Origin: Escherichia coli O157:H7
Lineage (GTDB): Bacteria; Pseudomonadota; Gammaproteobacteria; Enterobacterales; Enterobacteriaceae
Length of the DNA: 64,000 bases
Reading direction: 5' to 3' (one strand)
Assembly: GCF_013167455.1 (NCBI RefSeq)
Contig: NZ_CP038328.1
The first letter of the stretch is position 1; each line of letters begins with the position of its first letter. The position numbers are program-made. Below, piece by piece: positions 33,001 through 36,000 of this stretch.

Positions 33001-36000
33001 CACTTTTTTTCCGAGAATCGATACCAGTTCAGTGACCGAACCTGTTTTCACCGGCACGCGTTGCGCATGACCTTTCAGTTTGCCGCTCAGTTCCGGGATC
33101 ACCAGACCAATGGCTTTTGCCGCGCCCGTAGTGTGGGGAATGATATTTTCTGCCGCGGCGCGTGAAGCACGTAAATCTTTACCACGCGGGCCATCCACCA
33201 GTGACTGGGTGCCAGTATAGGCATGAATGGTCGTCATCGTGCCGACTTCTATCCCGAAACTGTCATGCAAGGCTTTGGCCATCGGCGCAAGACAGTTAGT
33301 AGTGCATGATGCCACGGAAACAATGGTGTCGTTGCCATCCAGAGTGTCGTCATTGACTTTATAAACGATAGTTTTCATTTCACCTGCAGGGGCGGAAATC
33401 AACACCTTCTTCGCGCCAGCATCAAGATGCGCCTGCGATTTCTCGGCGGAGGTATAAAAGCCAGTACATTCGACAATGATTTCTGCACCTTTCGCTTTCC
33501 ACGGAATATTTTTAGCCTCTTTTTCGGCGTAAACCGCGATACTTTTCCCATCAACGATAAGTGAATCTTCCGTAAAATCAACGCTCCAGGGGAACGGACC
33601 ATAGTTTGAATCATGTTTCAGCAGATAGGCGAGAATTTTTGGGGAAGTAAGATCATTAATAGCGACAACGTCTATGTTGCTTTTGACTTCAAGTAATCGA
33701 CGCAACACCAGTCGACCGATACGACCAAAACCGTTAATACCAACTTTACTCATGGTTTTCTCCTGTCAGGAACGTTCGGATGAAAATTGATCCTTTCCAG
33801 GCTTAGACCAGGATGGCGGGATGGGCAATCTCCATTCTTACAGTGAAACGTAACGTACTGAAAAAGGGTGAACAATATTTAATGAAATTTTGAGAAAAGC
33901 CCGTTATGTTAACGGAAAATTATGTTAAAGCAGGAAATGTTATGGAAAATAAATACTCAAGGTTACAAATCAGCATTCACTGGCTGGTCTTTTTGCTGGT
34001 TATCGCAGCGTATTGCGCAATGGAGTTTCGGGGTTTCTTCCCACGTAGCGATCGGCCACTCATCAACATGATTCATGTTTCCTGCGGCATATCAATTCTC
34101 GTGCTGATGGTCGTTCGTCTTTTGTTAAGGCTGAAATACCCAACCCCGCCGATTATACCTAAGCCAAAACCGATGATGACGGGACTGGCGCATTTGGGAC
34201 ATTTGGTGATTTATCTCCTGTTTATTGCGCTGCCAGTGATTGGTTTGGTGATGATGTATAACCGAGGCAACCCGTGGTTTGCGTTTGGTTTGACGATGCC
34301 TTACGCTTCAGAGGCCAATTTCGAACGGGTAGATAGCTTAAAGTCGTGGCATGAAACGCTGGCGAATCTGGGATATTTTGTCATCGGTTTGCACGCTGCG
34401 GCTGCACTGGCACACCACTATTTCTGGAAGGACAACACACTTCTACGCATGATGCCGCGTAAACGTTCCTGAAGGATATTTAAAGAAAACGCCTGTACTA
34501 AAACCGACCCGTGGTACAGGCGAAGAATACGGGTCTACATCGGAAGCGCCTATTATATTTATTTGTATGACAAATAAAACCATAATCCTTGCCCATACGT
34601 CCATCTGGCTTATTTTTAATCAATTCACCCGATCTTTGATCTCATCAACGGTATCAAAATAAACCAGCGTATAACGTTCAAATCGAACATAAGATTCGAT
34701 AAACCATGGAGGTTATATGAAAAAACTGGCACTTATTTTGTTTATGGGAGCGCTTGTTTCCTTTTATGCCGATGCCGGGCGCAAACCCTGTTCTGGTTCG
34801 AAAGGGGGGATCTCACACTGTACGGCAGGCGGCAAATTTGTCTGTAATGATGGTTCTATTAGTGCATCGAAAAAAACATGCACTAACTGAAGTGTAAAAG
34901 GGGTGCCATGAGAAAATGAATCTGCTAGTCAGATGCGCGGGGAAAATCCCCGCGCTTGCCCTTACCTGGACGTGCAGGCCATGAGCGCAGCAACCTCCTT
35001 ATCACTGTCCCGGAACCGCAGTTCGTAGAGCGTTTGTCGGGTCAGGAGTGTGAATGTCAGAATCGTAATGCAGATAATGAGCAGACACACCACCAGAGGG
35101 TTGCGCTTCATAGCCTTTCTCCTTGCCGGATGGCGGGTAAGAGGCTAACATCTGAATTGCTTGGTTCATTCGTTGGCCTCGGTTGATAGAAATATCGGTC
35201 GGGGCCTTCGTCTTTCTGATTCCCGGTTAGCCTGAAAACAGAAAGTCTCAGGCACCCGTGAGCATCCTATGTGGTTTCCTTAGGGACGAAAATAATCACC
35301 TGACGAAATTGCGTGCTGTTTTCCAGAATTTTTCGTCATTCGGGTTAGCCAGTTTAACCATTCGTTACTCTCTTCATTCCAATGGCATTAATCTTCTCTG
35401 CAATAATTGTTGTAAAAATGTGACGCAAAGAGGCTTTTAGTCGTAAGTAATTACCGTCAAATGCCGATGACTTTCTATCAGGAGTAAACCTGGACGAGAG
35501 ACAACGGTAATGAATACAACTCCCTCACAGCGATTAGGTTTTTTGCATCACATCAGGTTGGTTCCGTTATTTGCCTGCATTCTAGGCGGTATCTTAGTTC
35601 TATTCGCATTAAGTTCAGCCCTGGCTGGCTATTTCCTCTGGCAGGCCGATCGCGATCAGCGTGATGTTACTGCGGAGATTGAGATTCGGACCGGGTTAGC
35701 GAACAGTTCAGATTTTTTGCGTTCAGCCCGGATCAATATGATTCAGGCCGGGGCTGCGAGTCGTATTGCGGAAATGGAAGCAATGAAGCGAAATATTGCG
35801 CAAGCCGAATCGGAGATTAAACAGTCGCAGCAAGGTTATCGTGCTTATCAGAATCGGCCGGTGAAAACACCTGCTGATGAAGCCCTCGACACTGAATTAA
35901 ATCAACGCTTTCAGGCTTATATCACGGGTATGCAACCTATGTTGAAATATGCCAAAAATGGCATGTTTGAAGCGATTATCAATCATGAAAGTGAGCAGAT

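Follow-up and report, generated by a model that had tools for sequence, protein, structure and literature searches.

Between ydcA and trg, the chromosome of Escherichia coli O157:H7 carries a short segment that an earlier note, made from the sequence alone, had read as a hokB/mokB/sokB type I toxin-antitoxin locus. We examined it within a stretch of 64,000 nucleotides (nt) of contig NZ_CP038328.1 (RefSeq assembly GCF_013167455.1), referred to below as the window, and all positions are those of the window unless stated otherwise. Our reading, to which we assign a probability of about 93%, is that the segment is the O157:H7 allele of K-12 hokB/mokB/sokB (b4428/b1420/b4429) and forms an intact type I toxin-antitoxin module. 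The hokB/mokB/sokB locus of E. coli is itself already known, curated and experimentally studied.

The identity of the locus was settled by alignment. The window and K-12 NC_000913.3 aligned at a constant offset of +1,456,960, with zero insertions or deletions over 34345-35835, so the curated K-12 features of hokB, mokB, sokB and yncP transfer exactly to window coordinates. In the K-12 record these include hokB at 1491922-1492071, mokB at 1491962-1492129 and sokB at 1492119-1492175, together with rydC, ydcA, yncP and trg. The name given to the locus in the earlier note was thus borne out by base-for-base orthology to the curated K-12 locus, with 8 substitutions in the transcribed part (34893-35257) and a few more in the promoter region. 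The locus was 100% identical to that of NZ_AP018488.1, and the segment 34850-35330 matched O157:H7 chromosomes of E. coli at 100% identity; the RefSeq O157:H7 record lists hokB as WP_001303279.1. Of 5426 complete E. coli genomes, 5410 gave a match to the same segment, and the records listed carry a hokB annotation beneath it. The interval first proposed, 34935-35260, does hold a real locus. Its low end was drawn too narrowly: the element onto which the mRNA 5' end folds back sits at 34901-34912.

The toxin side of the module consists of two overlapping open reading frames (ORFs) on the minus strand. The earlier note had described both with these lengths, and the ORF list contained both.

34962-35111, minus strand: hokB toxin gene, 49 amino acids, MKRNPLVVCLLIICITILTFTLLTRQTLYELRFRDSDKEVAALMACTSR
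35002-35169, minus strand: mokB reading frame, 55 amino acids, mapping to K-12 b1420

HokB matched Pfam PF01848 (HOK_GEF) with an E value of 6.8e-22, covering positions 2-42 of the 42 in the model, and NCBIfam NF007279 (Hok) with 97.1 bits against a cut-off of 73. The match to the NCBIfam HokA model was weak (36.4 bits) and fell below the cut-off. A Shine-Dalgarno sequence, AAGGAG at 35124-35119, lies 7 nt before the hokB start codon. The mokB frame has its own, GAGG at 35180-35177, followed by a 7-nt spacer and an AUG at 35169 (start codon 35169-35167). It overlaps hokB by 110 nt in a different frame and ends inside it. The protein-family search with MokB returned zero family matches, as expected of a coupling frame. 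K-12 HokB has been reported to form pores, to cause ATP leakage and persistence, and to be induced at the transcriptional level in an Obg-dependent manner (PMC6094483). The connection with persister formation made in the earlier note is therefore backed by the literature (PMC6094483, PMC5668327).

The mRNA elements expected of a hok locus were also present on this strand, as follows.

35264-35292, minus strand: putative hokB/mokB mRNA promoter, with -10 TAGGAT at 35269-35264, a weak -35 TTTTCG at 35292-35287 and a 17-nt spacer
34893-35257, minus strand: putative full-length mokB-hokB mRNA, about 365 nt, with an approximate 3' end just beyond the fbi-like element
35106-35257, minus strand: mok/hok mRNA leader, Rfam RF01794 'sok', with three consensus hairpins
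35247-35257, minus strand: tac-like 5' element GGGUGCCUGAG, the first 11 nt of the mRNA
34901-34912, minus strand: fbi-like fold-back element CUCAUGGCACCC, partner of the mRNA 5' end
34955-34935, minus strand: GC-rich hairpin after the hokB stop codon, GCGCGGGG-AUUUU-CCCCGCGC, counterpart of the R1 post-stop hairpin

The promoter was picked up in a loose scan as a 7/12 match to the consensus, and its position is a candidate one. A gap of 6 nt separates the -10 hexamer from a GG at the start, and the R1-type plasmid locus that served as a control (L004, found with R1 Hok as the protein query) is spaced alike, its TATGAT at 221-226 leading to G233. The mRNA 5' end was placed at 35257, which is position 1 of the RF01794 alignment. 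The leader matched this family over its full length (1-157) with 111.5 bits, a gathering score of 59 and an E value of 1.6e-24. The same family matched the hok-sense strand of the control locus (L004 232-403, plus strand) with 87.2 bits. Since the match fell on the toxin strand in both loci, it supports a mok/hok leader and not the existence or orientation of SokB, and we dropped it as evidence for the antisense RNA. The family is named 'sok antitoxin', yet its match reports the strand of the toxin mRNA leader and not that of the antitoxin RNA.

The 365-nt mRNA was predicted to fold with a minimum free energy (MFE) of -145.7 kcal/mol (z -6.16), a value that none of 100 shuffled sequences equalled, and the two ends were paired with each other in both the MFE and the centroid structures. 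In this predicted pairing, the tac-like element at 35257-35247 meets the fbi-like element at 34912-34901 with one bulged base. The tac/fbi duplex reached -31.2 kcal/mol, compared with -18.9 +/- 2.9 kcal/mol for shuffled 3' regions, and none of 500 shuffles equalled it. When the ends of hokB and of the R1-type locus were exchanged, the crossed pairs were weaker (-14.1 and -13.1 kcal/mol) than the cognate 5'/3' pairs (-21.8 and -17.1 kcal/mol). The fbi element lies about 50 nt past the stop codon in both loci. By these folding predictions, the fold-back arrangement of hok mRNAs is present in hokB mRNA. Together with the Pfam and Rfam E values, the z score of the whole-mRNA fold puts the ORFs and RNA elements far outside chance expectation.

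The hairpin at 34935-34955 had been taken in the earlier note for the 3' hairpin of the hok mRNA. It is indeed there, with a predicted energy of -19.5 kcal/mol (z -3.15) that only 2 of 200 shuffles matched, and the single variant seen in it (34947) falls at a loop position. Its counterpart in the R1-type locus is GGCGGGC-GCAG-GCCCGCC at L004 569-586, and the R1 processed end lies directly after. The R1 hok mRNA is 398 nt long and becomes active once its 3' end has lost 39 nt, which leaves 361 nt (PMC5668327). As the counterpart of the R1 hairpin, the hokB hairpin would therefore mark the end of the processed mRNA and not that of the primary transcript. When the mRNA was truncated at 34928, the leader was predicted to refold into the three-hairpin shape of the Rfam family, with the 5' end pairing locally to GGCCCC (~35206-35201). 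The truncation also raised the mean predicted unpaired probability of the region targeted by the SokB tail from 0.33 to 0.69. This predicted refolding is consistent with the R1 model.

A 9-base-pair (bp) inverted repeat, TTAGTGCAT-(10 nt)-ATGCACTAA, lies at 34856-34883, inside the 3' end of ydcA and just downstream of the fbi element. We considered it as a hokB terminator and rejected it, as neither strand has a T-run. The primary 3' end of hokB was consequently kept approximate. No experimentally mapped hokB or sokB transcript ends were found in the literature examined.

The antitoxin side lies on the opposite strand.

35123-35151, plus strand: proposed sokB promoter TTGCCG-17-TAACAT, with -35 at 35123-35128 and -10 at 35146-35151
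35159-35215, plus strand: putative sokB antisense RNA, 57 nt, mapped from K-12 b4429 (1492119-1492175)

The earlier note had called this a good antisense promoter. Its sequence, place and orientation held up, and the promoter points at the mokB start codon, with the -35 hexamer overlapping the hokB Shine-Dalgarno sequence of the opposite strand. The word 'good' did not, because an 8/12 match (4/6 + 4/6) is unremarkable: there were 278 such sites in the window, about 1 per 460 nt of strand, and a promoter scan at a threshold of at least 9/12 returned no promoter within 34600-35600. The promoter is credible for its position and homology rather than for the quality of its hexamers. The -10 hexamer ends 7 nt before the K-12-annotated 5' end of sokB (35159). 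Both hexamers share Rfam alignment columns with the R1-type promoter TTGCGC-17-TATCCT, and the two spacers have the same 3' half (GGTAAGAGGC). The -10 read TAACAT, TAAGAT or TATGAT in five further E. coli alleles, with T1, A2, A5 and T6 constant except in an allele scarred by the insertion sequence (IS) IS150.

The RNA itself is predicted to consist of a single-stranded 5' tail of 12-16 nt, followed by a 14-bp hairpin (35175-35206) and then UUCGUCUUU, with a fold energy of -22.2 kcal/mol (z -4.50). The terminator scan placed one of its three terminator-like sites in 34600-35600 at the same hairpin, which is followed by TTCGTCTTTC and remains T-rich to 35216. The end of this terminator-like hairpin coincides with the annotated 3' end of sokB (35215). 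SokB is complementary to the mokB Shine-Dalgarno sequence, the start codon and the first mokB codons. An antisense RNA across the mokB start, as the earlier note had proposed, thus fits the annotation at both ends, the predicted start agreeing with the K-12 5' end and the terminator-like hairpin with the 3' end. Knockdown of sokB by CRISPR interference (CRISPRi) was reported to cause a condition-dependent growth defect (bioRxiv 10.1101/2020.03.04.975888), which supports a function in K-12.

The earlier note had the core of the locus right and overlooked two features, an editing site and a small overlapping ORF.

35029-35023, minus strand: TadA editing loop CUACGAA, in which A35026 corresponds to K-12 A1491986 and lies in hokB codon 29, UAC
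34916-34984, plus strand: yncP small ORF, 22 amino acids, MNLLVRCAGKIPALALTWTCRP, K-12 b4774, annotated in RefSeq

TadA edits adenosine to inosine (A-to-I) in hokB, which changes Tyr29 to Cys and gives a more toxic HokB (PMC5630033, PMC12214031). The edited A sits within a TACG motif, in a loop that mimics the anticodon loop of tRNA-Arg, at Tyr29 or Tyr46 (PMC5630033). In the window the TACG motif is present, and A35026 sits in a predicted loop. Editing of hokB has been reported in enterohaemorrhagic E. coli (PMC12214031).

The yncP ORF is antisense to the 3' end of hokB. It shares 23 nt with the end of hokB, extends across the post-stop hairpin and is among the experimentally verified small ORFs (PMC8921622). 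It is an overlapping neighbour and not a demonstrated member of the toxin-antitoxin system. As a translated ORF, yncP needs a transcript antisense to the hokB 3' end, which would cover the post-stop hairpin, and a transcript that starts upstream of the ORF would cover the fbi zone as well. It is conceivable, though we rate the idea as quite improbable, that such a transcript provides a further antisense control, from the 3' side, over the processing or activation of hokB mRNA, and that, separately, the O157-specific changes at the sokB -10 and +4 positions alter SokB dosage and persister frequency. In the literature examined, no test was found of an effect of the yncP transcript on 3' processing of hokB mRNA.

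The positions at which the window allele differs from K-12 include the following.

35104: HokB H3R
35006: HokB G35S
35149: sokB -10 TAACAT, compared with TAAGAT in K-12
35162: sokB +4, also mokB codon 3
34932: yncP R6H
35259-35261 and 35272: differences just upstream of the mRNA start

Judged from the aligned sequences, none of the differences from K-12 removes any element of the module. The sokB -10 is polymorphic in the species, being TAACAT in the O157-type allele, TAAGAT in K-12 and TATGAT (5/6 consensus) in strain SCU-172. This polymorphism could lead to strain-specific SokB levels.

The R1 mechanism is expected to hold for chromosomal hok loci (PMC5668327). By combining the R1 hok/sok paradigm with the findings on K-12 hokB, we infer transcript ends, mRNA processing, translational coupling, SokB action and toxicity for the window allele as follows. 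The weak promoter near 35264-35292 would produce a mokB-hokB mRNA of about 365 nt from about 35257. In the full-length mRNA, 35257-35247 would pair with the fbi element at 34901-34912, giving a closed and translationally inert form. Slow 3' trimming to the hairpin at 34935-34955 would take away the fbi element, and the trimmed leader would refold to three hairpins and expose the ribosome-binding region of mokB. Translation of hokB would occur solely via coupling to mokB. SokB (35159-35215, plus strand), transcribed from TTGCCG-17-TAACAT, would bind the mokB initiation region through its 5' tail. This pairing would block translation of mokB and hence of hokB, and the duplex would be degraded. 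An increase in hokB transcription (the published trigger being Obg and (p)ppGpp) or a decrease in SokB would allow the 49-residue HokB to enter the inner membrane and form pores. The pores would collapse the membrane potential and leak ATP, leading to dormancy and antibiotic tolerance. Editing of A35026 by TadA, changing Tyr29 to Cys, would give a more potent toxin.

Many E. coli genomes have lost this arrangement. The locus was unbroken in 4502 of the 5410 matching genomes, leaving about 900 without an unbroken copy. In strain NT1F10, IS150 is inserted at the equivalent of 35182-35184 with a 3-bp AAC duplication. The mokB/hokB frames are thereby parted from the promoter and the tac element, and the sokB terminator is interrupted. 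Many further genomes showed a split match like that of NT1F10. In strain SWHEFF_68, a 20-nt remnant of the left end of IS150, TGTACTGCACCCATTTTGTT, replaces about 35181-35147. This scar removes the Shine-Dalgarno sequence and start codon of mokB, the SokB 5' tail and the sokB -10, while the hokB ORF is intact; hokB in this strain is probably untranslatable and without antitoxin. In Nissle 1917, a deletion from trg into hokB has taken out the 5' portion of trg, sokB, the promoter and leader of hokB and the sequence for the HokB N-terminus. A truncation of the Nissle type (query 235-408 only) was seen in several other strains. The window allele has none of these lesions, neither the IS150 insertion, nor the IS150 scar, nor the Nissle-type deletion.

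Several observations weigh against the intact, regulated module proposed here. Pedersen and Gerdes, in 1999, reportedly described K-12 hokB as 'probably inactivated by point mutation'; later work regards hokB as active (PMC12214031). Toxicity and pore formation were shown for K-12 HokB, which is two residues (H3R and G35S) away from the window protein. The sokB promoter agrees with the consensus at only 8 of 12 positions and the hokB promoter, at 7, is a weaker match even than that, and the K-12 record calls sokB a 'putative small regulatory RNA antitoxin SokB'. Covariation between tac and fbi was sought among divergent E. coli alleles and none was shown. The locus is 97.5-100% conserved, which leaves the test without power, as variation at the species level is too low to reveal covariation. 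The sole fbi variant seen (A34904C in strain 3385) breaks the U35254-A34904 pair and is uncompensated. In strain 3385, trg is also truncated.

Some of these points would suit a silent relic, in which the ORFs survive without a working regulated toxin-antitoxin pair, as proposed for most K-12 chromosomal hok loci. The weakness of both promoters and the broken state of hokB in many E. coli, through IS150 in the leader, the IS150 scar or Nissle-type deletions, are compatible with this reading, and the other four K-12 hok loci are deemed inactivated by IS elements or rearrangement (PMC12214031). The window allele, however, is complete: both ORFs keep their Shine-Dalgarno sequences, tac and fbi are there along with the hairpins, and sokB has its promoter and terminator. 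Endogenous hokB is moreover transcribed and edited, in enterohaemorrhagic strains as elsewhere (PMC5630033, PMC12214031), knockdown of sokB costs fitness (bioRxiv 10.1101/2020.03.04.975888), and hokB mediates Obg-dependent persistence (PMC6094483). We therefore regard a silent relic as very improbable. The toxin might also be real with SokB not its main control, so that transcription (Obg, ppGpp), mRNA fold-back and proteolysis govern it and the antisense promoter is a chance 8/12 match. The frequency of such matches, the failure of the standard scan to return a promoter and the 'putative' status of SokB in K-12 would allow this. Other layers of control have also been described, namely Obg-dependent transcriptional induction (PMC6094483) and degradation of HokB by RseP (PMC10470546). 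Against chance stand the alignment of the hexamers with the sok promoter of the R1-type locus in homologous columns, a predicted start equal to the annotated 5' end of sokB, and a strong terminator hairpin at the right distance. The T1, A2, A5 and T6 positions of the -10 also stay constant while positions 3 and 4 vary, and CRISPRi of sokB produced the growth defect mentioned above. We give this reading very little credence.

A third view accepts that the module works mechanically and assigns it a chromosomal role other than persistence, such as phage exclusion, abortive infection or the stabilisation of neighbouring DNA. Plasmid hok/sok systems carry out post-segregational killing and have been reported to exclude phage T4, and its frequent absence from E. 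coli genomes points to a function that cells can do without and that pays off under certain conditions. Direct experiments, in contrast, tie HokB pores to persistence (PMC6094483), and cybB, ydcA and trg, the neighbours in the window, are housekeeping genes with no hint of a defence island or mobile element. We consider such a role unlikely. The intact type I module with a persistence-linked toxin is the reading we prefer.

The two genes that the earlier note had named as flanking the locus were both found there.

34717-34890, plus strand: ydcA, on the low-coordinate side of the hokB locus
35510-37150, plus strand: trg, on the high-coordinate side

Other features were seen elsewhere in the window. 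The small RNA RydC (34483-34546, minus strand; Rfam 92.5 bits) is encoded between cybB and ydcA, some 350 nt away from the hokB locus, and the small RNA MicC was found at 309-429 on the plus strand (Rfam 125.3 bits). The gapC gene (32752-33753, minus strand), a glyceraldehyde-3-phosphate dehydrogenase paralogue, is an intact ORF of 333 amino acids, whereas the K-12 version is a frameshifted pseudogene.

The intact O157:H7-type locus confirms the annotation and published work and adds no new biology. Of use are the exact map of its elements, the catalogue of differences between this allele and K-12, and the record of frequent breakage by IS150 or deletion in other E. coli. The system it belongs to is of wider interest. 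The hokB/sokB pair is the one E. coli chromosomal hok module with a demonstrated role, in which pores triggered by Obg and ppGpp leak ATP and yield antibiotic-tolerant persisters, and hokB is the best model for A-to-I editing of bacterial mRNA.

Among known systems, the closest is K-12 hokB/mokB/sokB (NC_000913.3 1491922-1492175), which has the same neighbours (rydC, ydcA and yncP on one side, trg on the other), all features one to one, and the same TadA editing codon and loop. The R1/IncF hok/sok system (parB) shares the Hok/Gef toxin, a mok frame overlapping it and, as proposed in the case of hokB, an antisense RNA whose promoter sits within mok at equivalent alignment columns. Its leader likewise falls in RF01794, its 5' and 3' ends pair, the spacing from stop codon to fbi is equal, and a GC-rich hairpin follows the stop codon. 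The partner of GGCGCUU in the R1-type locus is GAAGCGCC, some 50 nt beyond the stop codon. The two systems differ in the tac/fbi core, which is GGGUGCC/GGCACCC in hokB and GGCGC/GCGCC in the R1-type locus, and in size, HokB having 49 residues and R1 Hok 52; SokB is annotated at 57 nt. At the DNA level the likeness was limited. A blastn search of the hokB locus against plasmids hit plasmid Hok-family genes only, aligning part of the query at about 67-73% identity, and R1-type hok was not among the sequences returned. The two also differ in setting, as hokB is chromosomal with a documented role in persistence, while R1 hok/sok serves plasmid maintenance (PMC5668327). The remaining chromosomal loci, hokA, hokC/gef, hokD/relF and hokE, share the toxin family, the type of regulation and the proneness to IS150 and IS186 (PMC12214031). 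In K-12, hokA, hokC, hokD and hokE are considered inactivated, whereas hokB is the active and studied member (PMC12214031). Editing also sets hokB apart from its relatives, occurring at codon 29 in hokB and at codon 46 in the other hok genes (PMC5630033).

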